10,280 bases of DNA, taken from IMG/VR virus record IMGVR_UViG_2690316323_000007. One strand, 5' to 3'. The stretch is from a virus. Its lineage: Duplodnaviria; Heunggongvirae; Uroviricota; Caudoviricetes. Positions 1 to 10,280 of this stretch are shown here, piece after piece; position 1 is the first letter of the stretch, and the number at the start of each line of letters is the position of its first letter. The notes beneath the pieces were generated by a model. It searched no databases. It was given only the letters and a program-made list of their open reading frames with translations, and was not told where the DNA came from. Made by a program: the position numbers and the translations under genes.

Positions 1-1251
1 GTGCTTACCGATACAAAATTAAAAAACCTCAAGCCGCAGGACAAACTGTACAAGGTCTCCGATCGTGACGGGCTGTATGTAGCTGTGCTTACGTCAGGCA
101 CGGTCTCGTTTCGCTATGACTACCGTATCAACGGTCGCCGCGAAACACTGGTAATCGGGCAGTATGGGCGTGACGGTATCAGCCTGGCAGAAGCGCGGGA
201 AGAACTGATTGCTGCAAAGAAGCTGCTTAAAGCAGGCCAGTCGCCGGCTGCGGCTAAACGTGACGGTATCAAAAAGATTCGTGGTGCCGAGACATTTGCG
301 GTACATACCGACAGTTATATGAAACACGTCATCCTGGCTGAAAGTACCCGCGCAATGAAACAGGCGGTGATCGACCGTGACATACTTCCGGTTCTTGGCA
401 ATAAAATGATGGCTGAAATTACCACATCGATGGTTCGTGATTTGTGTGACCGGATTGTCGAACGCGGTGGCCGGGCAACAGCAGTGCAGGCCAGGGAGAT
501 CATCAGTAGCGTATACCGTCACGCCAATGACCGTGGTCATGGTTTGTTTAATCCTGCGGCTGACATTAAACCTTCGTCTATCGCCATATTTAAACCACGA
601 GAGCGAACACTGACACCAGAAGAAATTGGCCTGTTCTTCCGCACGCTGGATGCCATTGGTGCTATGGGCACTATGAAAATGGCTTTAAAGCTGGTGCTTA
701 TCACTATGGTTCGTAAAGGCGAATTCACCAATGCAACGTGGGATGAAATAGATTTTAAAAAATGGACATGGACAATTCCTTCAGACCGCATGAAGGGAAG
801 CCGGACGCACGTTATTTACCTGCCTAAACAGGCACAGGATATATTGGTTGGGTTGCAGATGTGCGCTGGTGGAAGTGAATATCTGGTTCCTGGTCGTTAC
901 AATTTCCGGAAGCCATTATCTAATGCCGCGCTGAACTCTCTGATCGACAGAACGGTGAAAATAATAAATGAAGATGGTGAGCATATTCAGGACTTCACCG
1001 TACACGATATGCGCCGTACAGCAAGTACGTTGTTGCATGAGGCTGGTTATCCTTCAGACTGGATTGAAAAGGCTCTGGCACATGAGCAGAAAGGTGTGCG
1101 CGCCGTATATAACAAAGCGGAATACGCCAGACAGCGCGCCTACATGTTGCAGCAGTGGGCCGATATGATTGATTCCTGGATTGACGGGGAGCATACGGAT
1201 CTGATTCCGTTCTCCCCGTCGAAGTTTGAGAAATGGATGGCGGGGGAATAA
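1..1251 (+). CDS. Tyrosine recombinase / phage integrase, P4-like family (416 aa, GTG start at window position 1; upstream context not visible)
   Basis: N-terminal arm-type DNA-binding region (MLTDTKLKNLKP...DGLYVAV...FRYDYRINGRRETLVIG) and C-terminal catalytic region with H-x-x-R (HDMRRTASTLL) and a candidate catalytic Tyr (VRAVYNKAEY). Stop TAA at 1249-1251. Because the ORF starts at base 1, the true start could lie further upstream. Confidence 0.9.
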   Translation: MLTDTKLKNLKPQDKLYKVSDRDGLYVAVLTSGTVSFRYDYRINGRRETLVIGQYGRDGISLAEAREELIAAKKLLKAGQSPAAAKRDGIKKIRGAETFAVHTDSYMKHVILAESTRAMKQAVIDRDILPVLGNKMMAEITTSMVRDLCDRIVERGGRATAVQAREIISSVYRHANDRGHGLFNPAADIKPSSIAIFKPRERTLTPEEIGLFFRTLDAIGAMGTMKMALKLVLITMVRKGEFTNATWDEIDFKKWTWTIPSDRMKGSRTHVIYLPKQAQDILVGLQMCAGGSEYLVPGRYNFRKPLSNAALNSLIDRTVKIINEDGEHIQDFTVHDMRRTASTLLHEAGYPSDWIEKALAHEQKGVRAVYNKAEYARQRAYMLQQWADMIDSWIDGEHTDLIPFSPSKFEKWMAGE

Positions 1252-1258
1252 TTTTGCC

Positions 1259-1276
1259 CGGCACATCCCTGTGCCG
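1259..1276. terminator. Short hairpin between convergent genes (CGGCACA-tccc-TGTGCCG); possible weak bidirectional terminator
   Basis: Perfect 7-bp inverted repeat with a 4-nt loop in the 31-bp gap between the integrase stop (1251) and the Bro-N gene stop (1283). No clear U-tract on either side, so terminator function is uncertain. Confidence 0.3.
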
Positions 1277-1282
1277 CCGCCG

Positions 1283-1975
1283 TCAGAAGAACTCTGCTTT
1301 GTCGTTGATGTACTCCGCGTGCGTCTGGATATCACGCAGGCATTTGCTCACACCAACGATGTAGCAGAACATGGTGGTCAGCTCCGCCGCCGCGCCCGAT
1401 ACGTCGTGCCCGTCTTCCTGTAACTGGTTCAGCAGATTCATCAGCAGTGAGTTCTCCGTCAGGCCGAGAACACCAGACGGAGAATGAATCAGGCTACGGT
1501 AGCCGGGCTTCAGCGGGGCGCTGTAGGTTTTGTTCTCTATCTTCATTGCCTGCATCACTGCTGATGCTGTGGCGTTGGCTACCTGGTCGGCAACCATCTT
1601 TATGCGTTCTTCCTGCGGGAGCGAGTTTTTAATGTAACTTCCGGTGCGGCGGATCTGAGGAAGAACCTCACCTGTAACCCATTCAAGAAATCTGAATGCT
1701 CTCGTTCCCTCAGTCATTGCCTCTTTGCAACGCAGAATAAGGATGTAGAGACCTGATTCTGAAACGATGGATAGTTCTTGTATTCCACCAGGGGTCTGTA
1801 TTGAATACAGCCCCTTTTTGTTCCAGCCTTTTTTATCAAGTTTTCTCGCTTGTGTAACATCAATATTCAAAGCATTGCACACATCTTTGGTGACAAACCA
1901 AGGTTCTCCGTCAATCATGAACATACGGATCTGGCAGGATGACTCAAAGGAAAAGATGGAAGGTTTGGTATTCAT
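1283..1975 (-). CDS. Bro-N domain protein (antirepressor-like) with a C-terminal domain that is paralogous to the 85-aa protein at 3359..3616
   Basis: Six-frame ORF 1283..2020 trimmed to the internal ATG (1975..1973 on minus), which has an RBS (AAGGTGA) about 6 nt upstream. The N-terminal half matches the Bro-N pattern (FSFESSCQIRMFMIDGEPWFVTKDVCNALNI...GLYILILRCKEAMTEGTRAFRFLEWVTGEVLPQIRRTG). The C-terminal ~70 aa align with the small protein at 3359..3616. Confidence 0.85.
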   Translation of the reverse strand: MNTKPSIFSFESSCQIRMFMIDGEPWFVTKDVCNALNIDVTQARKLDKKGWNKKGLYSIQTPGGIQELSIVSESGLYILILRCKEAMTEGTRAFRFLEWVTGEVLPQIRRTGSYIKNSLPQEERIKMVADQVANATASAVMQAMKIENKTYSAPLKPGYRSLIHSPSGVLGLTENSLLMNLLNQLQEDGHDVSGAAAELTTMFCYIVGVSKCLRDIQTHAEYINDKAEFF

Positions 1976-2001
1976 GGCGATCACCTTTGTAGTTAGGTTA
2001 A

Positions 2002-2034
2002 TCACCACCGCTGAGACCAATCAGATGGTGGTGA
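2002..2034. promoter_or_regulatory. Inverted repeat TCACCACC-N17-GGTGGTGA in the Bro-N gene upstream region; candidate operator
   Basis: Perfect 8-bp arms at 2002-2009 and 2027-2034, located about 27-60 bp upstream of the Bro-N start codon on the minus strand. Function is inferred from position only. Confidence 0.3.
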
Positions 2035-2162
2035 ACTGTGCAGAGTTGGTCTTACCGGCTACAAAGGAACCCGGCGCACCTTTCGGTGCCCCCACACAGC
2101 CCACCATAGAATAGGTGCGCTTTACACATAAAAAAACCGCTTATGCGGCATATGTGCCTCTG

Positions 2163-2216
2163 TAGTAATCCGGGAGACCAATCCCGGCACTGGATTTTGC
2201 CAGTGCCCGATTACTA
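2163..2216. other. Nested stem-loop element in the divergent intergenic region (candidate RNA structure or protein-binding site)
   Basis: Inner stem CCGGCACTGG (2184-2193) / CCAGTGCC(G) (2200-2208) with loop ATTTTG; outer arms TAGTAATC (2163-2170) / GATTACTA (2209-2216). The 9-mer GAGACCAAT occurs both at 2175-2183 inside this element and at 2013-2021. No flanking U-tract, so it is not a classical terminator. Confidence 0.35.
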
Positions 2217-2335
2217 TGGCACAAGAGGAGTGCGATGTAAATTTACCGCAAAGGTAATAATAAATGCATAACTCACGTTATTTCAACCCTATGTGGTTTG
2301 ATTGATCCCATTTCAGAAAATACCTGCCTATTTTT

Positions 2336-2365
2336 TTGCCAGTATGCGTATACTTTCGATAGAAT
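2336..2365 (+). promoter_or_regulatory. Candidate sigma70 promoter for the two-gene operon (TTGCCA-18 nt-TAGAAT)
   Basis: -35-like TTGCCA at 2336-2341 and -10-like TAGAAT at 2360-2365 with an 18-nt spacer, about 55 bp upstream of the ATG at 2419. Confidence 0.45.
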
Positions 2366-2418
2366 GTTTACCCTAGAGGTAGTTGGGGGGGCCCGTGAAC
2401 ACGAAGAGAGCTACAGTA

Positions 2419-2838
2419 ATGCAGCATTTGAGGAAATCAGAAAAAAATAAAGACCATGAAATATTGAGTAAGGCCATTGTTCGGGCTTCCAATAATACTG
2501 TTATACCTCATGCTGAAGAGACTGGACAGAAATTTCTTATTCGGTATTTCACTGAAAATAGTGCAGTTGAGGAGATTTTAAAACATCAGGGAGGGGAATT
2601 TAAATGTGGAAAACTGGCAGATTATGTTCGTCGTGAAACGTCTGAACAAGAAGTATATTATGCTGATATTAATCATAAGTCAGGTGTGAAAATTGTAATA
2701 GGCTATTACACAACTCCCAAAAATGTTATGCATGAGGTCCCAAAGATGTCCGTCGAGAAATCTCATGCAATCTCGCGCAGGATGTTTGCACGCACTGCCG
2801 AAGATATGGCTCAGGAGCTCTACGACGATGCTGAATAA
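2419..2838 (+). CDS. Hypothetical protein (139 aa), first gene of a translationally coupled pair; candidate antitoxin/partner of the downstream gene
   Basis: ORF 2383..2838; start assigned to ATG 2419, which has an RBS-like AAGAGAG about 9 nt upstream (alternatives: GTG 2395, TTG 2383). No family recognised by eye; acidic C-terminus (ELYDDAE). Its stop TAA (2836-2838) overlaps the downstream start inside the string ATGCTGAATAA. Confidence 0.7.
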   Translation: MQHLRKSEKNKDHEILSKAIVRASNNTVIPHAEETGQKFLIRYFTENSAVEEILKHQGGEFKCGKLADYVRRETSEQEVYYADINHKSGVKIVIGYYTTPKNVMHEVPKMSVEKSHAISRRMFARTAEDMAQELYDDAE

Positions 2839-3334
2839 ATTCCAGGGGTTGGTTCACCCTGGAATTTTTGGGAAGGACCCTGAGCTAATACCTATCAAAA
2901 ACGCGTTCATAGATCACTGGCGCTACGGTCATCATAAGGATTTCGGAAAGGACACTCTGTTTCGGGATCCACCGAAAGAGATGCTGGAATATCACATACG
3001 CCACGTTCACGTAAACATCGGAAACTATACTGACAAGTTTGGTGAGAGCGGTACGGAACAATGCTGGAAAAACTGGGCATCCGGGAAGAAAGACAAGACC
3101 ACCAACAAGCATAAAAAAATACCAACCAGTGATGTGTATGTGATTTATCTTGTAACGTCTGAGCGACATGCGTTTCTTCTGGATTACTGGGATGAGCCAG
3201 CACACAAAAAAGTAGAAATTGACGAACAAAAACAAAAACTTCTTGTCGAGTGTGACAGAATTTTGCGGCTGAAAAATTTAGAATCCATGCCGCGCGATGC
3301 AAGTTTGTGGGACCCGGAATTTTACGACTGTTAA
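2828..3334 (+). CDS. Hypothetical protein (168 aa), second gene of the pair; weak resemblance to YafO-family type II toxins (tentative)
   Basis: ORF 2723..3334 trimmed to ATG 2828, which overlaps the upstream stop by 11 nt. Recalled YafO-like features: FGKD/FGRD-type motifs (IFGKDPE, DFGKDTLFRDPP), HIRHVHVNIGN, and a C-terminal block VYVIYLVTSERHAFLLDYWDEPAHKK. Confidence refers to the CDS call; the family assignment alone is about 0.4. Confidence 0.7.
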   Translation: MLNKFQGLVHPGIFGKDPELIPIKNAFIDHWRYGHHKDFGKDTLFRDPPKEMLEYHIRHVHVNIGNYTDKFGESGTEQCWKNWASGKKDKTTNKHKKIPTSDVYVIYLVTSERHAFLLDYWDEPAHKKVEIDEQKQKLLVECDRILRLKNLESMPRDASLWDPEFYDC

Positions 3335-3335
3335 T

Positions 3336-3360
3336 GGCCGCTCTTGCGGCCTTTAAATTT
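3336..3360 (+). terminator. Candidate rho-independent terminator after the two-gene operon (GGCCGC-tctt-GCGGCC followed by TTTAAATTT)
   Basis: Perfect 6-bp GC stem (3336-3341 / 3346-3351) with a 4-nt loop and a T-rich tail, sitting between the convergent stop codons at 3334 and 3359. Confidence 0.45.
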
Positions 3361-3616
3361 ACCGGGTTTGTTTTCGTAATTGTTCGGCACAATAGTCGAG
3401 ATGTGTTTGCAGATCCCGCATAGACATCTGTGAGCTGGTGACGTAGTTAATCAGTGCAGTCAGTTCGGCAAGTGGGCCATCGACATTAAATCCATCCTTA
3501 TCGAGATCCCGGAGTAATTTCATCAAGTGCGATCCCTCCACCAGTGACCTGACGCCTCCCGGCGTGTGAATCCTTTCGGTAAATCCGTCTTCCAGTGGAT
3601 AGTGATACTGCTGCAT
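3359..3616 (-). CDS. Small protein (85 aa), stand-alone paralog of the Bro-N protein C-terminal domain; predicted SOS-regulated
   Basis: ORF 3359..3634 trimmed to the ATG at 3616 (MQQYHYP...), which has an RBS GGAGAAG about 7 nt upstream; the ATG at 3634 lies inside that RBS. Shares about 40% identity by eye with residues ~160-231 of the 1283..1975 protein (IH[ST]P.GV..L.E.S.LM.LL..L..DG..V.G..AELT...Y......RD[IL]QTH). A LexA box sits 20 bp upstream. Confidence 0.7.
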   Translation of the reverse strand: MQQYHYPLEDGFTERIHTPGGVRSLVEGSHLMKLLRDLDKDGFNVDGPLAELTALINYVTSSQMSMRDLQTHLDYCAEQLRKQTR

Positions 3617-3635
3617 CTTATCTTCTCCATGCAAT

Positions 3636-3655
3636 AACTGTATATTTATACAGTA
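3636..3655. promoter_or_regulatory. LexA (SOS) box: AACTGTATATTTATACAGTA
   Basis: Matches the E. coli LexA consensus TACTGTATATATATACAGTA at 18 of 20 positions, with both CTGT and ACAG half-sites intact and 8-bp spacing. Lies immediately upstream of the minus-strand small gene (start 3616) and within the divergent region shared with the tail fiber gene. Confidence 0.75.
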
Positions 3656-3691
3656 TCAAATAATTTGTTTGCTATCCAGCACGTTTTGCAA

Positions 3692-3758
3692 ATTACCTGA
3701 AAGGTAATATCTGTTCGTATTCACACCCTTTCTATCCATATGTGGTTTTTCAGGTAAT
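3692..3758. promoter_or_regulatory. Cluster of GGTAAT half-sites upstream of the tail fiber gene (palindrome ATTACC-tgaaa-GGTAAT plus a further AGGTAATA copy)
   Basis: Palindrome at 3692-3708; AGGTAATA repeated at 3702-3709 and 3752-3759; TACCTGAAA (3694-3702) is the reverse complement of TTTCAGGTA (3748-3756). No good sigma70 -35/-10 pair is apparent for the tail fiber gene. Confidence 0.35.
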
Positions 3759-3811
3759 AGAATAACCAGATATGCGGCGCAACGGGTGCTGCGACTATCT
3801 GGAGATTTAAC

Positions 3812-6787
3812 ATGACGGTCTCAACCGAAGTTGACCACAACGAATACACAGGTAACGGCGTTACGACATCATTTCCGTATACCTTTAGGGTTTTCAAGGA
3901 ATCTGATCTGGCAGTACAGGTGGTTGACCTTGACGAAAATATCGCTGTGCTGGCTCTTGATACTGATTACACTGTCACTGGGGCTGGTGGATATAATGGC
4001 GGTAATGTAATTCTGTCGAAGGCGTTAGCTAACGGTTATCAGATTTCTATATCACGAGAGCTACCGGTTACGCAGGAAACTGATCTGCGAAATCAGGGAA
4101 AGTTTTTCGCTGAGGTGCATGAAGACGCGTTAGATAAGCTGACGATGCTGATACAGCAAGTCCGCAGTTGGTTTAGCCTGGCGCTGCGCAAACCATCATT
4201 TGTGGCAAACTATTACGATGCTTTGAATAATTACATCCGCAATTTGCGCGATCCTTCCAAGCCTCAAGATGCAGCTACAAAGAATTATGTTGATAATATT
4301 GTTAATGTGAATATTAACAGGACATTACGGGTTCCAGATAATTTTATTGAACCACTTCCTCCAGTTCATTTACTGGAAGAAACTGTCATTGGTATCGTCA
4401 ATGGTAAACCTATAGGTGTACCTGTGCCTTCTGGCAGTGCCGCAGATGTTCTTCTGCAATTATCTAGCGCAGGAGAAGGAAAAGGAGATGCATTAATTGG
4501 TGTAAGGCAGCCATTTGCCGGGGCTGTAACTATAACTCAGCATGAAAACAATGCTCTTTTCTTAAATGTAAAACAATTCGGAGCAATTGGGGATGGGAAA
4601 TATCATCCATTATCTGAGAGGTTTTCTTCAATTTCTGAAGCAAAATCCTTATATCCTTTTGTTGACTCATTATCTCAGTCAATAGACTGGGCCGCGTGGC
4701 AAGCTGCCATTAACACAGGAAAGGTTATTTATGGTACTGATAATGCGTATGTAATAACGGATACGTTAACACCTGTTTCTGGTGGTGGGATAATTGGTCT
4801 TGGTGTGGGCAAATGGGTCTCTGGATATACTGCAACATTTGCTCCTGATATTACCACAGGGACCACATTCCTGATGTACGGTGTAGGAAATAAAAAATAT
4901 ACTGTAGATTGTGTTTCTAATATGGATGTTAGTGGTGGTGTGGTTTCTAATCCATCTTCCGAAGACCCGTATACAACAACGGCACCTGCGTCATCATATG
5001 ATTTATTGGATTTTACTAACGGTGATGCTAATGGGGCTACAAGAGCCACGCTTAAACCATTCTCTGCCGCAATATTGATGCCAGAGACAGGATGTGTTCG
5101 CCTTGAGAACTTTCGTATTGTTCCATATTTCAATGGGCTGGATGGTTATAAAGACATTGCAAATACCGGTCTTGGCGATGAGTGGGATGTAGGTATTTGG
5201 TCACGTGCGTCTTTTGGCAATGAATACCGCAATTTGCAGGTGGTTGGATACTGGCGCAAGACGGCACTTTTAAAAACGAACATTCCTGTATCTGGCACGC
5301 TGGCCGCTCAGGGCGAGGATGAAAACTATTATCACTGTAGATTCCAGGGATTCAAGGGTGTTTCGATCCGCGCCCATGATGTATTCCGAATTACAGCGGT
5401 AACGTCCAGCACTATCGAAATCCCATGGTCATCAAGCCACACCTTCGAAACGTCCGGGGTTTTAAGATCGGGAGGCAGGAATTTCACTTATTCAGGATTA
5501 TCCGTATCCGGTGATAAGTTAGTATTTACTGGAGTGTCTAACGCTTCTGAGGCAACAGTAGGTTCTACTATACGGCGAAATGACATAGATAACTTTGGTA
5601 TGGCGGGAACGCAATTTTTCGATTGCTACATTACCAGCCTGTATCACCACACACATCTGCTTGCCACATCGCAATACCTGTCTCAGCCATTCAGCCGGCC
5701 ATCAGAGTGTATGGAGGTTTCAGGGGAACCAGTTCGCGGTGTACAGGTACATGCAGGAACCATTCAGGGATGGGATGATGTTCTTATTCATCTGCATGAC
5801 TGTGGAAATATGAACTTTTACAGTACATATTTCGAAAGCCAGCCAGCATATGTAACTATAAATGGTGGTAATGCTATTGGTTATGGAGCACGTATGATAG
5901 CTTCCAGGCAATCAACAAGCTCATTACCATATGCAGCAGGGAATACTCGAGTGCTTAGAATGGTCGGGTGCTCTGAAGGCAATGGCGTTGACTGGGGTCC
6001 TGTATTTAACAACTATACAGGAGGAAGATATAATTCTGGAGACGGTGTATTTAACCCCCGCGATGCATTTGTAGACCATAAATCTCTTCCTGAGCAGTCA
6101 GGAGGTGAGTCAAGACTCGTATCACAAAAAGGAAATGCCAGAGTAGTATGTGGTGTTGGTAAAACTGTACTGCTTGGACCAACTTCAGGAGATTGTAATT
6201 TACAGAGTAATACTGGAAGTTTAAATATTAGAAGTGGGATAAGAGTAAGAATCGGTCACGCTGATGGAACAGACTGGTGGTTGGCAGATGCTAATAAAAT
6301 AGCTCCTGTTGATGATAATGTTAAAGCTATTGGACAGCCATCAAACAGATGCTCTGTTATCTATGCAGGAACCGGGTCAATCAATACGTCAGATGAAACT
6401 CTTAAAACAAGATATGATATTCTTAATGCAGAGCGTGATGCCGCTATTGAAATAAAGTCAGTCATCTATAAATTTAAATTTAATGACTCAATTAATCACA
6501 AAGGAATTGAGTCGTCCAGGTATCATTTTGGCGTTGGCGCTCAAACCGTAGGGGATATTCTTAGAAAGCATGGTTTAAACCCTGAGCAATATGCTTTTTG
6601 GTGTTACGATGAATGGCCTGACGTATGGGATGAAGAGGTGATAACTGAAGAGAGCACAGATCCTGATACAGGTGAGAAAATTTATTCTCAATATAAAACA
6701 GGAGATATGATTCTTGTAAAAAAAGCAGGAGGACGCTACGGAATTCGTTATGACGAATTAGCCATGTTTATATTAATGTCAATGTAA
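3812..6787 (+). CDS. Tail fiber / tailspike protein (991 aa) with T7 gp17-like N-terminal adaptor, central pectate-lyase-like beta-helix (putative depolymerase) and C-terminal intramolecular chaperone (peptidase S74-like) domain
   Basis: ATG 3812 with GGAG 7 nt upstream. N-terminus (YTGNGVTTSFPYTFRVFKESDLAVQVVD...DYTVTG) resembles podovirus tail fiber N-terminal domains. Central region has the beta-helix start motif (NVKQFGAIGDGK...DWAAWQAAINTGK). C-terminal ~130 aa (SDETLKTRYDILNAERDAAIEIKSVIYKF...YHFGVGAQTVGDILRKHGL) resembles the self-cleaving chaperone of endosialidase-type tailspikes. Confidence 0.85.
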   Translation: MTVSTEVDHNEYTGNGVTTSFPYTFRVFKESDLAVQVVDLDENIAVLALDTDYTVTGAGGYNGGNVILSKALANGYQISISRELPVTQETDLRNQGKFFAEVHEDALDKLTMLIQQVRSWFSLALRKPSFVANYYDALNNYIRNLRDPSKPQDAATKNYVDNIVNVNINRTLRVPDNFIEPLPPVHLLEETVIGIVNGKPIGVPVPSGSAADVLLQLSSAGEGKGDALIGVRQPFAGAVTITQHENNALFLNVKQFGAIGDGKYHPLSERFSSISEAKSLYPFVDSLSQSIDWAAWQAAINTGKVIYGTDNAYVITDTLTPVSGGGIIGLGVGKWVSGYTATFAPDITTGTTFLMYGVGNKKYTVDCVSNMDVSGGVVSNPSSEDPYTTTAPASSYDLLDFTNGDANGATRATLKPFSAAILMPETGCVRLENFRIVPYFNGLDGYKDIANTGLGDEWDVGIWSRASFGNEYRNLQVVGYWRKTALLKTNIPVSGTLAAQGEDENYYHCRFQGFKGVSIRAHDVFRITAVTSSTIEIPWSSSHTFETSGVLRSGGRNFTYSGLSVSGDKLVFTGVSNASEATVGSTIRRNDIDNFGMAGTQFFDCYITSLYHHTHLLATSQYLSQPFSRPSECMEVSGEPVRGVQVHAGTIQGWDDVLIHLHDCGNMNFYSTYFESQPAYVTINGGNAIGYGARMIASRQSTSSLPYAAGNTRVLRMVGCSEGNGVDWGPVFNNYTGGRYNSGDGVFNPRDAFVDHKSLPEQSGGESRLVSQKGNARVVCGVGKTVLLGPTSGDCNLQSNTGSLNIRSGIRVRIGHADGTDWWLADANKIAPVDDNVKAIGQPSNRCSVIYAGTGSINTSDETLKTRYDILNAERDAAIEIKSVIYKFKFNDSINHKGIESSRYHFGVGAQTVGDILRKHGLNPEQYAFWCYDEWPDVWDEEVITEESTDPDTGEKIYSQYKTGDMILVKKAGGRYGIRYDELAMFILMSM

Positions 6788-6797
6788 TAATAAATGC

Positions 6798-6837
6798 AAT
6801 AACCCCGAATAAAACAGCGGGGTTATTGTTATTATAA
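6798..6837 (+). terminator. Rho-independent terminator downstream of the tail fiber gene
   Basis: 10-bp stem AATAACCCCG (6798-6807) / CGGGGTTATT (6818-6827) with a 10-nt loop, followed by the T-rich stretch GTTATTATAAT. Confidence 0.6.
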
Positions 6838-7080
6838 TAATGATCTTAACTTCTTAAATGATATTTATATGCACTTGGATTATTAAATCTATATTATGCC
6901 TGTTATTTATGTGTTCTGTTATATGTTTTGCAGGCACTGTTGGCAGCATTAAAGGAAATTGTATTTATGGCGAAATAGCTGGTATCGTGTTTTTATTGTG
7001 CGTAAAAATAACAGACTGCATATATTATTGTATAAAGTTTTGGAAATGAAAACACTCAAACTTACCGCTGTGGATATGTT

Positions 7081-7109
7081 TTGACCATCGCGAATTGGAT
7101 TGGTAATAT
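7081..7109 (+). promoter_or_regulatory. Strong sigma70-like promoter upstream of the lysis cassette (TTGACC-17 nt-TGgTAATAT, extended -10)
   Basis: -35 TTGACC at 7081-7086, 17-nt spacer, -10 TAATAT at 7104-7109 preceded by TG at 7101-7102. Located about 85 bp upstream of the first lysis gene. Confidence 0.55.
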
Positions 7110-7120
7110 TGGGTAACAAA

Positions 7121-7136
7121 AAACCATAAATGGTTT
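7121..7136. promoter_or_regulatory. Perfect 16-bp palindrome AAACCATAAATGGTTT just downstream of the predicted transcription start; candidate operator
   Basis: Arms AAACCAT (7121-7127) and ATGGTTT (7130-7136), separated by AA. Sits between the promoter -10 and the RBS AGGAGG (7161-7166). Confidence 0.4.
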
Positions 7137-7193
7137 ATCATGCGTAATGCTTTACTGTTCAGGAGGTAGTTATGCATATAAACGGTGGAAAAC

Positions 7194-7598
7194 ATGTCAG
7201 CTCAACTAACCAGTGAAACTTTAAATCAGTGGCTTAGCATGAGTTCTTTGGCGGCAGTGATAGCAGGAGTTCCTCCTGAGGTTGCTTTGGGGTCTTTGGC
7301 TGGGGCGGTGATTTTTGTTACCTCTGCGGTAGAGTATCCCATTCGTCGTCGCGTGCTCTTGTCGATGCTTAGCTTTCTCTGCGGACTTCTATTCTACAAA
7401 CCAGCAGCATCAATTCTTATCGGCATAGCCAGCCTGATCCCTACAATCACACAGGATTCTTTCGAGAAAGGGATTGTTTTCTCTGCCGGTGCATTTGTGT
7501 CAGCAATCGTCGCTGTGCGAATTGGGATCTGGCTCTATCACCGTTCCGATAATCCACGCGAGTTAATTCCGGGGAGAAAAGACGATGGTAACTCATGA
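7194..7598 (+). CDS. Holin-like membrane protein (134 aa from ATG 7194; 137 aa if GTG 7185 is used), about 4 predicted transmembrane segments
   Basis: Hydrophobic stretches LAAVIAGVPPEVALGSLAGAVIFV, VLLSMLSFLCGLLFY, ASILIGIASLIPTI and IVFSAGAFVSAIVAVRIGIWLY, with a charged C-terminus. First gene of an overlapping operon with the endolysin. Two in-frame candidate starts (GTG 7185, ATG 7194). Confidence 0.65.
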   Translation: MSAQLTSETLNQWLSMSSLAAVIAGVPPEVALGSLAGAVIFVTSAVEYPIRRRVLLSMLSFLCGLLFYKPAASILIGIASLIPTITQDSFEKGIVFSAGAFVSAIVAVRIGIWLYHRSDNPRELIPGRKDDGNS

Positions 7599-7893
7599 GC
7601 TTTTTTTGCTTATCACCAATGCGGTTATTTGCGCCGGTATAGCAGTTCGAGTTGCCACATTTCGGAGAAACGGTTCTCAACACAGGCGATGGGGTGGGTG
7701 GCTTGCTTATTTCCTGATTGTTGCTGCGGCCAGCATTCCAGTTCGTGTCGCTTATGCAATCTGGTTACGCACGCCAATGGCTGTGGATTTATCTGAGGTC
7801 ATTATCAACGCTGTCATGCTTGCCGCGGTTATTAAAACACGCGGTAACGTTGTTCAGATTTTCAAAATATCGAGGTCTAAACATGGAGATTAA
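7585..7893 (+). CDS. Second small membrane protein of the lysis cassette (102 aa; holin or antiholin-like)
   Basis: ATG 7585 with GGGGAGA 6 nt upstream; overlaps the upstream gene's stop by 14 nt in a different frame. About 3 hydrophobic segments ([53 protein letters not shown]). Its stop (7891-7893) overlaps the endolysin start. Confidence 0.65.
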
Positions 7894-8512
7894 ACAATTC
7901 CAGCGAGCTGCTGGTATTAGCGAGGCGCTGGCCGCACGCTGGTTCTCGCATATAACTTCTGCGATGAAAGAGTTTGGTATCAGCAAACCAGAAGATCTGG
8001 CAATGTTTATTGCTCAGGTCGGGCATGAGTCTGTGGGCTTCACCCGGTTGCAGGAGAATTTCAACTACAGCGTCAGCGGACTGGCTAACTTCGTTCGGGC
8101 TGGGCGTCTCACTCAGGGGCAGGCTAATGCACTGGGGCGACGTGCTGGTGAGCCACCATTGCCACTCGAGCGCCAGCGAGCGATCGCCAATCTGGTGTAC
8201 AGCAAACGCATGGGGAACAATGCCCCTGGTGACGGCTGGAACTACCGTGGGCGCGGACTTATCCAGATTACCGGTTTGAATAACTATCGTGACTGTGGAA
8301 ACGGTCTTAAGGTTGACCTGCTGGAGAGTCCTGAACTGCTGGCGCAGGACGAATACGCGGCTCGTAGCGCGGCGTGGTTCTTCTCCAGCAAAGGCTGCAT
8401 GAAGTATACCGGAGATATTGCACGTGTAACTCTGCTTATCAATGGTGGCCGGAACGGCATTGATGACCGGCGCGCGCGATACATAACTGCCAGTAAGGTG
8501 CTGGCGGTATGA
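7883..8512 (+). CDS. Endolysin, glycoside hydrolase family 19 (chitinase-like lysozyme), 209 aa
   Basis: ORF 7718..8512 trimmed to ATG 7883 (GAGG 7 nt upstream). GH19-type motifs: [45 protein letters not shown]. No N-terminal transmembrane segment. Confidence 0.85.
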
Positions 8513-8991
8513 TCTGGGCATTCGCAAAAGCATACTGGAAACAGTTGGTTATCATGGCGATGCTTGCTGTTCTGGTCATATCAGGAGTTGTAGCCTGGAA
8601 TGCACACGGCAGTCGTCAGTACGATGCCGGGTATGCGCAGGCGAAGGAAGACCGCAAAGCTGAAGATGAGATAGTTCGTCAGCACTACGAACAGGAGAAA
8701 TCGATCAATGAACGTGAAGCGCAGCAGAGGATCGACCAGGCGCGCAATGATGCTCTTGATGCTGCCGCTCGCGCTGGCCGGTTGCAGCAACAACTCTTTG
8801 CCATCCGTGAGCAGCTCAGGCAGTATAACGCCATTGTCGGCGCTGGGACGTCAGCCGCAGACACCGGAGTTTTGCTTGCCGACGTGCTCAGCAAATCTCT
8901 CGAGAGAAACAGACAACTGGCAGAGTATGCTGACCGGGCAGCCGAAGCCGGAAGAGTCTGCGAAAAACAATACGACACCCTGACCAGATAG
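8509..8991 (+). CDS. Rz-like inner-membrane spanin (i-spanin), 160 aa
   Basis: Start ATG overlaps the endolysin stop (ATGA at 8509-8512). N-terminal transmembrane segment ([18 protein letters not shown]), a long charged/coiled-coil-like region ([38 protein letters not shown]), and a C-terminal Cys. Confidence 0.8.
8708..8983 (+). CDS. Rz1-like outer-membrane lipoprotein spanin (o-spanin), 91 aa precursor, fully embedded in the +1 frame of Rz
   Basis: Lipoprotein signal peptide with positive n-region ([12 protein letters not shown]), hydrophobic core and lipobox LAGC (Cys at residue 26); Pro-rich mature part. RBS-like AGGAG 10 nt upstream. An alternative start at ATG 8747 would give too short a signal peptide. 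Confidence 0.7.
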   Translation: MNVKRSRGSTRRAMMLLMLPLALAGCSNNSLPSVSSSGSITPLSALGRQPQTPEFCLPTCSANLSRETDNWQSMLTGQPKPEESAKNNTTP

Positions 8992-9072
8992 CATGGCATT
9001 TTTCATGGTACTGATTTCCGGTGACGGTATATAAAACGGTACTAGAAAAATGAAGTTTTGGAAAAATGTTAT

Positions 9073-9109
9073 CACTCAATTAGTTATGATTGTCGTAAAT
9101 AATTGAGTG
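9073..9109. repeat. 10-bp inverted repeat CACTCAATTA-N17-TAATTGAGTG in the junction region between the lysis cassette and the flanking genes
   Basis: Perfect arms at 9073-9082 and 9100-9109. Could be a protein-binding site or part of the island boundary; no function can be assigned from sequence alone. Confidence 0.35.
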
Positions 9110-9141
9110 GGAATGATTTGAACCCTGTACTATGAATGAAC

Positions 9142-9171
9142 AAAACCCTCTGTTACTACAGAGGGTTTTTT
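9142..9171. terminator. Bidirectional rho-independent terminator (AAAACCCTCTG-ttacta-CAGAGGGTTTTTT)
   Basis: 7-bp GC-rich stem flanked by an A-tract upstream and a T-tract downstream. Lies about 40 bp beyond the stop of the minus-strand gene 9210..9749 and about 150 bp after the Rz stop. Confidence 0.7.
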
Positions 9172-9209
9172 ATACTCACGAATCATAGGCTTGAAGTTAC
9201 TGACATCGC

Positions 9210-9749
9210 TTAGTTAAACCAGCTGTCCGATTTGTTCTCTTCTGCTTTACCCACGCTTTTCATCAGATCGCGACCGCCTTCAGTCATATTTCTGTTTGCG
9301 TCAGCTTCAGATTGCACCACATCGGTTTGCGCAGCTTTGTGCTTCAGTTCCTGATCGATAAATTCGTTTTCGCGCTTAACGCGGGCTTCTTCTTTCGCCA
9401 GCGCCAGTTTTTGCTTCTGAATCTCTAAGCTACGTAGCTCATCTTCATAACTTTGATCGCGTTTTTTGTCCGCAGTGGCTTCGGCGTCCAGTTTATCCTG
9501 ACGAGCTTTCTTATTCGCTGCTGCCGTTGCCGCTCTTTTATTAGCCGCGGCCTGGGCGTTTGCGCGACGTTGCTTCTCTTGCTGGATTTCCCTGTTGCGC
9601 TCCGCGACCCATTCGTCATGCTGCCTTTGCTCTTCATTTTTACCTTGCTGTTCCGCTTCTGCGACAGCCGAGAGTTGATCCTGCAATGATGAGGCGATAG
9701 CCGGATAGCTTAAGGAGGCTAAGATGGCGCAAAGAAAAACTTTCTTCAT
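9210..9749 (-). CDS. Secreted (periplasmic) charged, Ala/Gln/Lys-rich protein with N-terminal signal peptide, 179 aa; probable chromosomal gene
   Basis: Signal peptide MKKVFLCAILASLSYPAIASS; strong RBS AGGAGGAG immediately upstream; low-complexity coiled-coil-like body. Length and context are reminiscent of the enterobacterial yfgI gene but I cannot confirm identity from memory. Confidence 0.8.
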   Translation of the reverse strand: MKKVFLCAILASLSYPAIASSLQDQLSAVAEAEQQGKNEEQRQHDEWVAERNREIQQEKQRRANAQAAANKRAATAAANKKARQDKLDAEATADKKRDQSYEDELRSLEIQKQKLALAKEEARVKRENEFIDQELKHKAAQTDVVQSEADANRNMTEGGRDLMKSVGKAEENKSDSWFN

Positions 9750-9764
9750 GACTCCTCCTGATTA

Positions 9765-10280
9765 TTAGCTCTTTTCAGGACATTTGGTATTTGGCTGAAT
9801 ACGCGTTTCGTTATACGTCGTGGTAATAACAACGGCTAAACCTGTCGTAAACTGGCACTCTTTACCCACCTGGGTGGAGGTATACACTTTGGTGCCTTCC
9901 TTATATGTTAAAGAAACACCTTCCACTAAGGTTTTATCATTCACCATAGAACCCGCTGCTGCGCCAACAGCTCCGCCGCCAACTGCACCTGCTGTCGTTC
10001 CGGAATTGCTGCCAGACCCGACGTTGTGGCCGATAACACCGCCAGCGACAGCGCCAATAAGCGCGCCGAAGGCTTGTGCGTTCCGTTTATTTTGGGCGTT
10101 GTCTACGGCAACTTTTGCGGGAAGAATGGAAATAATATTAACGGTTTTAGTTTCTTGTTTGGTATTCAGTTGATCGGTTTGATAAACATCGGCGGCATGA
10201 TCATCAGCATTTGACTGGCATCCTGCCAGAGTAAATGACGCTAACATTGCCACAGGCAGAAGACATTTTTTTAATTTCAT
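9765..10280 (-). CDS. Lipoprotein with glycine-zipper motif, 171 aa; probable chromosomal gene; start codon at window end
   Basis: Lipoprotein signal with lipobox LAGC (MKLKKCLLPVAMLASFTLAGCQ) and a Gly/Ala-rich zipper segment (GALIGAVAGGVIGHNVGSGSNSGTTAGAVGGGAVGAAAG). Its stop lies 15 bp upstream of the next gene's start, suggesting an operon. Reminiscent of yfgH-type lipoproteins, unverified. Confidence 0.8.
   Translation of the reverse strand: MKLKKCLLPVAMLASFTLAGCQSNADDHAADVYQTDQLNTKQETKTVNIISILPAKVAVDNAQNKRNAQAFGALIGAVAGGVIGHNVGSGSNSGTTAGAVGGGAVGAAAGSMVNDKTLVEGVSLTYKEGTKVYTSTQVGKECQFTTGLAVVITTTYNETRIQPNTKCPEKS

Follow-up and report, generated by a model that had tools for sequence, protein, structure and literature searches.

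A compact integrase, tail-fibre, and lysis element at the guaA locus: very probably a recent deletion remnant of a Uetakevirus prophage

Why would a chromosome hold an island with an intact phage integrase, an intact tail fibre, and a full lysis cassette, yet none of the genes that build or replicate a phage? The question is raised by IMG/VR virus record IMGVR_UViG_2690316323_000007, a stretch of 10,280 nucleotides assigned to the Caudoviricetes; the whole of this stretch is called the window below. An initial annotation, made from the letters of the window, described a minimal island and offered three explanations for it: a selectively retained prophage remnant; a satellite-like element supplying its own receptor-binding protein to a helper phage; or a module that lyses part of the population to release a soluble depolymerase. 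We conclude, with a probability of about 0.9, that the element descends from a Uetakevirus (phiV10/epsilon15-like podovirus) prophage and is defective, a deletion remnant at the 3' end of guaA that arose through one crossover between direct repeats. It is a remnant of an already known kind, ordinary and recent.

Where does the element begin and end? The window is an exact substring of source contig AOQY01000018.1 (assembly GCA_000397685.1), in which guaA lies directly upstream of the integrase gene, with guaB and xseA beyond; downstream of the element come yfgI, yfgH, yfgG, and pdeF. Because guaA adjoins the integrase, the window covers nearly the whole element rather than one end of a normal prophage. 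(The initial annotation had pointed to this upstream region as the place where missing structural and replication genes might lie; guaA is there instead.) Its suggestion to look for direct repeats marking att sites proved fruitful. A 17-bp core, ATTGAGTGGGAATGATT, is present in direct repeat at both ends, 9,308 bp apart core to core: attL falls within the 3' end of guaA, outside the window (190-206 bp before its position 1), and attR lies at 9102-9118 (plus strand), where it duplicates the last guaA codons. The window contains this single match, with zero expected by chance. Letter for letter, this is the published attP/attB core of three phages that insert at the guaA 3' end, phiV10, epsilon15, and vB_EcoP_ZX5 (PMC9782041). 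A tRNA scan of the window gave no tRNA-linked att site; the guaA 3' end takes that role.

Similarity to phage genomes ends at window 9118, and the attR core is the true right boundary. The extent first proposed, positions 1-9209, therefore shifts at both ends: the element starts 206 bp before window position 1 and stops with attR. The remainder of the window is chromosomal flank, carrying the host genes yfgI (9210-9749, minus strand) and yfgH (9765-10280, minus strand), as in the RefSeq annotation of syntenic loci.

The gene order in the source contig is guaA, int, BRO-N, genes for proteins of 147, 168, and 85 residues, the tail fibre, two holins, a GH19 endolysin, a DUF2514 protein, and yfgI. 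What the initial annotation said of this content holds. The listing of open reading frames (ORFs) and the family scans confirm an intact integrase, a 991-residue tailspike in three parts, and five overlapping lysis genes, and no ORF between guaA and yfgI matches capsid (head), portal, terminase, tail-tube, or replication families in Pfam and PHROG scans. The complete set of virion, packaging, replication, and immunity genes is thus missing here and present in intact relatives, which makes the element a defective derivative rather than a working phage. Judged by its genes, it would be unable to replicate, build particles, or be packaged.

EC21Z-144 (NZ_CP101222), DETEC-S566 (NZ_CP116085), and EC332 (NZ_AP039429) each have an intact prophage of about 39 kb at this site. 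Prophages at guaA of this kind carry terminase, portal, and capsid genes, an epsilon15-type capsid staple, T7 gp14-like core proteins, and genes for replication, recombination, and a repressor. Together with the prophage of N10 (NZ_CM165902), also at this insertion site, they share DNA segments with the element at 97-99% identity: the lysis proteins are 99.5-100% identical in EC21Z-144, and BRO-N, the two cargo proteins, and Ant are 99-100% identical in N10. Compared with these prophages, which fill the interval from guaA to yfgI with a full gene set, the element lacks the interval between two antirepressor (ant) paralogues.

Named relatives place the parent in the genus Uetakevirus. The best of them in phage collections are phiV10, vB_EcoP_ZX5, the O157 typing phages 9 and 10, TL-2011b, and epsilon15-like Salmonella phages. 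In phiV10 the order runs BRO-N (minus strand), gp24 (minus), tail fibre (plus), oac (minus), membrane protein, holin, endolysin, Rz/Rz1, terminator, attP, integrase (plus), and early genes. The element follows the Uetakevirus module order (BRO-N and a gp19/gp24-like Ant, both on the minus strand; tail fibre on the plus strand; holins; GH19 endolysin; Rz/Rz1; attP; int), and the match to phage sequence spans all modules. The initial annotation was right that this order is neither lambdoid nor P22-like, but the order is not unusual: it is canonical for Uetakevirus. Att core, guaA site, and the order and orientation of modules are common to the element and to phiV10, epsilon15, vB_EcoP_ZX5, SPC32H, TL-2011b, and phiv142-3. 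Protein identity to phiV10 is 99% for the integrase and about 96% for the lysis proteins, and the structurally solved Ant of SPC32H is about 85% identical to the small Ant encoded here. What separates the element from these phages is some 30 kb, comprising the repressor, an AlpA-type regulator, and the recombination, replication, packaging, capsid, and tail/injection genes.

How was this DNA lost? The deletion junction is a 266-bp segment, 1260-1525, homologous both to the 3' part of the Ant gene at the left end of intact prophages and to the 3' part of the BRO-N gene at their right end. It encodes an Ant-like C-terminal domain common to these two paralogous antirepressor genes, and the two repeat copies share 96-97% identity over about 266 bp. 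To the left, window 1-1525 matches the left end of EC332 and of another intact prophage, comprising int and the 3' part of the int-adjacent Ant gene, at 98.7-99.0%; among the matches listed, all 23 of 23 left-end matches break off at 1525. To the right, the right ends of intact prophages (EC332, N10, and one more) align with window 1260-1690 and 1260-3896. The N10 prophage is 99.1% identical over 1260-3896, and that of EC21Z-144 is 99.2% identical over 3336-10280.

Single-nucleotide polymorphisms (SNPs) within the repeat narrow the point of exchange. The window is of the left type to about 1298, with left-type SNPs at 1279-1298, and of the right, N10-like type from 1514, which maps the crossover to about 1299-1513, inside the repeat. 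The geometry in an intact relative fits: the two copies of the repeat in EC332 share a strand, are separated by 31,763 bp, and agree at 260 of 271 positions, and the distance between att cores is 39,325 bp as against 9,308 bp here. The same junction, at 99.9% identity, recurs in an ENA metagenome contig, which spans guaA, int, the entire BRO-N gene, and a further 325 bp, and also in a Logan contig.

This suggests the following course of events. In an intact prophage of about 39 kb, Ant lies beside int at the left end and BRO-N upstream of the tail-fibre module near the right end, in the same orientation. A single crossover in this direct repeat would remove the 30-32 kb between the two ant paralogues. 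The losses would comprise the AlpA-type excision/regulatory gene; the Rep repressor; recombination and replication genes; and the genes for terminase, portal, capsid, and tail/injection proteins. What would be left is attL, int, a chimeric in-frame ant with its isrK/C4 region, the cargo pair, a LexA-controlled Ant, the tail fibre, the lysis genes, and attR. In the phage genome the retained genes form one contiguous block spanning attP, which integration parts between the two prophage ends. One homologous crossover between direct repeats thus accounts for the whole structure, including exactly which genes stayed.

Was the retained set selected? The initial annotation took the intact ORFs as an argument against random decay. 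The retained proteins are 98.8-100% identical to, and equal in length with, their counterparts in intact prophages. The chromosomal flank (11.4 kb) is 100.0% identical to that of the ST73-group strains CFT073, Nissle 1917, ABU 83972, and ATCC 25922, all of which have an empty site. Megablast searches with the whole window and with sub-windows found the same configuration in 0 of 5,426 complete E. coli genomes, and int adjacent to the BRO-N/cargo module in none of them either. A 20.7-kb query that includes the flanks, run against the same genomes, had only empty-site genomes on top and revealed no other compact remnant; with no genome above the empty-site hits, none of the 5,426 places int and the yfgI flank less than about 10.8 kb apart. 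Near-identity to intact prophages, flanks identical to those of empty-site strains, and absence elsewhere together indicate that the deletion is recent, lineage-specific, and rare. The ORFs are intact because there has been no time for decay, so their intactness is no evidence of selection; a recent single deletion explains it. Nor is selection needed to explain the choice of genes, since the retained set is whatever lies outside the two repeats. Of the proposal of a selectively retained prophage remnant, the prophage remnant stands and the selective retention does not: identities of 99-100%, the empty-site flanks, and the count of 0/5,426 speak against it.

The integrase is present in 550 of the 5,426 genomes, and intact Uetakevirus prophages of about 39 kb fill the guaA site in about 10% of complete E. 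coli genomes. In N10 an IS3-family transposase (locus 964-2177) interrupts a structural gene of an otherwise complete prophage at the same site, a different and independent route of inactivation at the guaA locus. A tRNA-Arg gene, flanked by those for terminase and portal, is also part of intact relatives (seen at three loci); the element has lost it.

The chimeric antirepressor at the junction (1283-1975, minus strand; 230 residues) is an in-frame protein of the BRO-N/Ant type (Pfam Bro-N, E 2e-13; phrog_130, anti-repressor Ant). It is identical at 229 of 230 positions to the right-end BRO-N protein of N10, and its residues 149-225 are homologous to SPC32H Ant (PDB 5D50_E, E 8e-14). Two predicted regulatory RNAs precede it on the minus strand, each a full-length Rfam match: a C4 antisense RNA, the P1/P7 immI-type regulator of ant (2024-2111; RF01695, 78.6 bits against a gathering threshold of 45), and, upstream of C4, an isrK-family Hfq-binding small RNA with its terminator (2130-2206; RF01394, 74.7 bits against 50). 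On this strand the isrK region has a terminator-like hairpin at 2149-2136 and a promoter-like site at 2286-2257. C4 is upstream of and co-oriented with the BRO-N ant gene, whose ATG is at 1975 on the minus strand, the arrangement expected of an immI-type system. The isrK and C4 tandem upstream of the BRO-N ant gene is predicted to be a control region like P1 immI and Gifsy-1 isrK-anrP, within a Uetakevirus.

The other antirepressor is the small Ant of epsilon15-like phages (3359-3616, minus strand; 85 residues), matching PDB 5D50 chain E over residues 2-84 (E 1.4e-46) as well as phrog_450. A predicted LexA box, CTGTATATTTATACAG (3638-3653), overlaps its promoter: on the minus strand a TTGATA -35 element lies just upstream of the box, and a ribosome-binding site and the ATG lie 22 nt downstream. 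This is the sole perfect CTGT-N8-ACAG in the window, and the box occupies the same position in five of the related loci compared, intact prophages included. Allowing at most one mismatch, the window contains nine such sites against 3.2 expected, a count reached in 0 of 200 shuffles; among the nine, the site at 3638-3653 is the only one that is perfect and has promoter context. The initial annotation had raised a possible SOS link for the lysis genes. A perfect LexA box does exist, but it is in the promoter of the antirepressor gene and not before the lysis cassette; it faces the opposite-strand ant, 159 bp from the tail-fibre start.

What would this Ant act on? ORF listing and Pfam reveal no helix-turn-helix repressor in the window that could be the cognate Rep. 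The Rep homologue of intact relatives (PDB 5D50_A, E 4e-42) sits in the segment deleted here, so the small SOS-type Ant is orphaned and its own target is gone; this sets it apart from the SPC32H Rep/Ant switch. (The link to SPC32H Rep/Ant rests on the PDB 5D50 matches together with secondary citations.) In having a small Ant whose promoter bears a predicted LexA box, the element resembles SOS antirepressor systems: SPC32H Rep/Ant, coliphage 186 Tum, and Gifsy GfoA/GfhA (PMC7380047). Induction by LexA-controlled antirepressors is documented for these phages (PMC7380047; PMC9638917), and the former, a review, documents antirepressor crosstalk in trans for Salmonella prophages. SOS-induced Ant would be the only plausible residual activity of the element, limited to action in trans on a related phage resident in the same cell. 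A further scenario may be sketched, although we consider it a long shot: upon DNA damage the orphan Ant, freed from LexA control, and maybe the chimeric BRO-N Ant, would induce or hinder in trans a co-resident or superinfecting Uetakevirus, to whose progeny the intact tail-fibre allele could be donated in trans or by recombination. If so, the remnant would be a minimal "induction trigger plus host-range cassette" riding helper phages.

Several points weigh against the conclusion that one crossover in a resident prophage made this element. The parental prophage itself is not in hand, and the crossover interval is deduced from proxy relatives that are themselves mosaic. The silence of the late genes and the impairment of excision are things we infer. 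The deletion could in principle predate integration. Finally, the sequence is a draft short-read assembly whose join falls within a 266-bp repeat, so that a mis-join is conceivable despite the same join in two independent assemblies. In its full form this last objection holds that a complete prophage is present and that the assembly passed from the left copy of the repeat, in Ant, into the right one, in BRO-N, leaving out about 32 kb. A repeat with 96-97% identity in a draft whole-genome shotgun contig is a place where that might happen. But the join lies mid-way in a 177-kb contig; it recurs at 99.9% in the independent ENA metagenome contig and in the Logan contig; left-type SNPs (1279-1298) and the right-type SNP (1514) stand on one continuous sequence; and repeats of this sort usually break contigs rather than give the same wrong path three times. 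We regard an assembly artefact as highly unlikely.

An element shaped by use rather than by accident is, in our view, similarly improbable. In such a domesticated module int, tail fibre, lysis genes, and Ant would be kept for a function: either SOS-triggered lysis of a subpopulation that releases a soluble depolymerase, or induction of other prophages by Ant. Every retained ORF is intact, the perfect LexA box accompanies an SPC32H-type Ant, and crosstalk in trans has the Salmonella precedent (PMC7380047), all of which speaks for such a module. However, recency accounts for the intactness (99-100% identity, empty-site flanks, 0/5,426); the genes kept are exactly those outside the two repeats; the LexA box faces the opposite-strand ant and is equally present in intact phages; and there is neither recurrence nor a signature of divergence. 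A tailocin or other particle-release module fits no better, for the tail fibre is the sole structural gene. Least credible, with a likelihood we put close to negligible, is a satellite that excises by its own integrase and supplies a receptor-binding protein to the particles of a helper Uetakevirus. The intact int, both att cores, and the intact tail fibre are what that proposal asks for, and the antirepressors might sense or trigger a helper. Against it, the element lacks a repressor, a replication initiator or primase, terS, and any gene that would remodel capsids or redirect packaging. Pfam and PHROG scans gave no match to a satellite replication module (primase/helicase, or Rep with an origin), every ORF of at least 85 residues being accounted for; the same scans found no protein for hijacking helper packaging (terS, capsid-size redirection), a cryptic pac site being conceivable from sequence alone. 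The AlpA-type gene, the terminase region, and the replication module all belong to the segment deleted relative to intact relatives. With its 9.3 kb the element has about one quarter of the length of the roughly 39-kb genome that these capsids hold, and it encodes no function for redirecting capsid size. Known satellite families (P4-like, PICI/cfPICI, PLE, and PICMI) are recurrent and distinct from their helpers; here each part of the element matches a helper-type phage at 97-99% identity, and the configuration stands as a singleton. The satellite-like element of the initial annotation is thus not sustained, and the deletion remnant remains our reading for the modules described below.

At the left end, the integrase (1-1251, plus strand) is an intact P4-type tyrosine recombinase of 416 residues with the Pfam domains Arm-DNA-bind_3, Phage_int_M, and Phage_integrase. 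It is identical at 412 of 416 positions to the phiV10 integrase, which has the same length, and likewise at 412 of 416 to that of an intact prophage. In intact relatives the stretch lost from the element has an AlpA-family gene close to int (phiV10 p36); with this neighbour gone, excision of the element is probably impaired.

The tail fibre or tailspike (3812-6787, plus strand; 991 residues) consists of a particle-binding amino terminus, a central β-helix that serves as receptor-binding or enzymatic domain, and a carboxyl-terminal S74 chaperone. Residues 1-129 are similar to the domains with which podovirus tailspikes bind the particle (PDB 28lx/8ck1, E 3e-25), and residues 221-336 to the first part of a tailspike β-helix (4ru5, 4ru4, P22/Sf6); residues 293-816 match phrog_33794; and residues 820-988 resemble the Peptidase_S74 intramolecular chaperone (7y5s, 3gw6; Pfam PF13884). 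The protein is identical at 989 of 991 positions to that of the intact EC21Z-144 prophage. Its central receptor-binding part is a different allele from that of phiV10, with 30% identity overall. Behind a 5' end that is conserved (to about window 3896), the tail-fibre bodies of related prophages in this position are very different; RefSeq names them endosialidase, GH28-related, SGNH/GDSL hydrolase, or generic tail fibre. The receptor-binding part looks as if it were exchanged like a cassette among related prophages.

Between the tail fibre and the first holin is an AT-rich spacer of about 400 bp (6788-7193; 32-35% GC) with no convincing gene. Its only ORF (6858-7049) would encode 63 hydrophobic residues and has no Pfam match. 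Epsilon15-like phages carry O-antigen-modifying genes in this slot, and the phiV10 map has the O-acetyltransferase gene oac there; by comparison with phiV10 the element has no oac or other seroconversion gene between tail fibre and holin. The seroconversion slot looks empty or degraded.

The lysis cassette, all on the plus strand, begins with a holin or holin-like membrane protein (7194-7598; 134 residues; Pfam Phage_holin_8; phrog_198 holin) and a second holin (7585-7893; 102 residues; Pfam Phage_holin_3_7, E 5e-27; phrog_217), both 100% identical to their intact-prophage counterparts. The GH19 endolysin follows (7883-8512; 209 residues; Pfam Glyco_hydro_19; phrog_181 endolysin, E 6e-90), identical at 208 of 209 positions to that of an intact prophage. 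The Rz-like i-spanin (8509-8991; 160 residues; Pfam DUF2514, E 1.5e-42; phrog_312) is 100% identical to its intact-prophage counterpart, and in its +1 frame lies an Rz1-like o-spanin lipoprotein with the lipobox LAGC (8708-8983; phrog_11621, E 1.6e-40), identical at 87 of 91 positions to phiV10 p30a. The genes overlap by 14 nt (holin/holin), 11 nt (holin/endolysin), and 4 nt (endolysin/Rz). The tail-fibre and lysis genes are presumably silent or weakly expressed, given that the strain survives the loss of the repressor.

The two cargo genes lie between the antirepressor genes, on the plus strand. The first (2395-2838) encodes a phage protein of 147 residues (phrog_9503, E 5e-88) that is 100% identical to its N10 counterpart; the second (2828-3334) encodes 168 residues (phrog_1651, E 2e-46) and is followed at once by a terminator-like hairpin (3336-3351). 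Neither protein has a match in Pfam (E up to 1), NCBIfam, or PADLOC, and a PADLOC scan of the cargo genes and the tail fibre found no defence system. RefSeq names the 168-residue protein of relatives a YafO-family toxin, a designation that Pfam and NCBIfam scans do not confirm. The N10 prophage has a second pair with the same RefSeq name nearby (the two pairs being at locus 8070-8895, minus strand, and 10138-11077, plus strand).

One further entry in the databases has a related gene content. Escherichia phage YDC107_2 (CP025713.1, 18.6 kb), a complete phage genome according to GenBank, comprises no more of a Uetakevirus than the part around attP: tail fibre, lysis genes, attP, int, and early genes. 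In its annotation the tail fibre is broken into many short fragments. The entry looks more like a partial or excised-form assembly than like a genuine phage of 18.6 kb.

Cryptic prophages are familiar from E. coli: CP4-57, e14, Rac, DLP12, and Qin are bounded by integrases, keep a subset of phage genes that often includes lysis and tail-fibre genes, and make no particles. The element is likewise an integrase-bounded leftover of a temperate phage. The difference is one of age: those prophages are old, species-wide, and partly decayed or domesticated, whereas this remnant is lineage-specific, essentially undiverged, and the product of a single deletion.

What does the element mean for the biology of these phages and their hosts? 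The locus is to be labelled a defective Uetakevirus prophage at guaA, not a new island or satellite, and as such has little import beyond annotation. It does offer a clean and datable case of the birth of a cryptic prophage, in which one crossover between paralogous antirepressor genes would leave behind the genes that flank attP (int, ant, tail fibre, and lysis), in a form resembling a purposeful "minimal island". For genome scans it carries a caution: when a deletion is recent, intact ORFs in a gene-poor phage island are no sign of selection.

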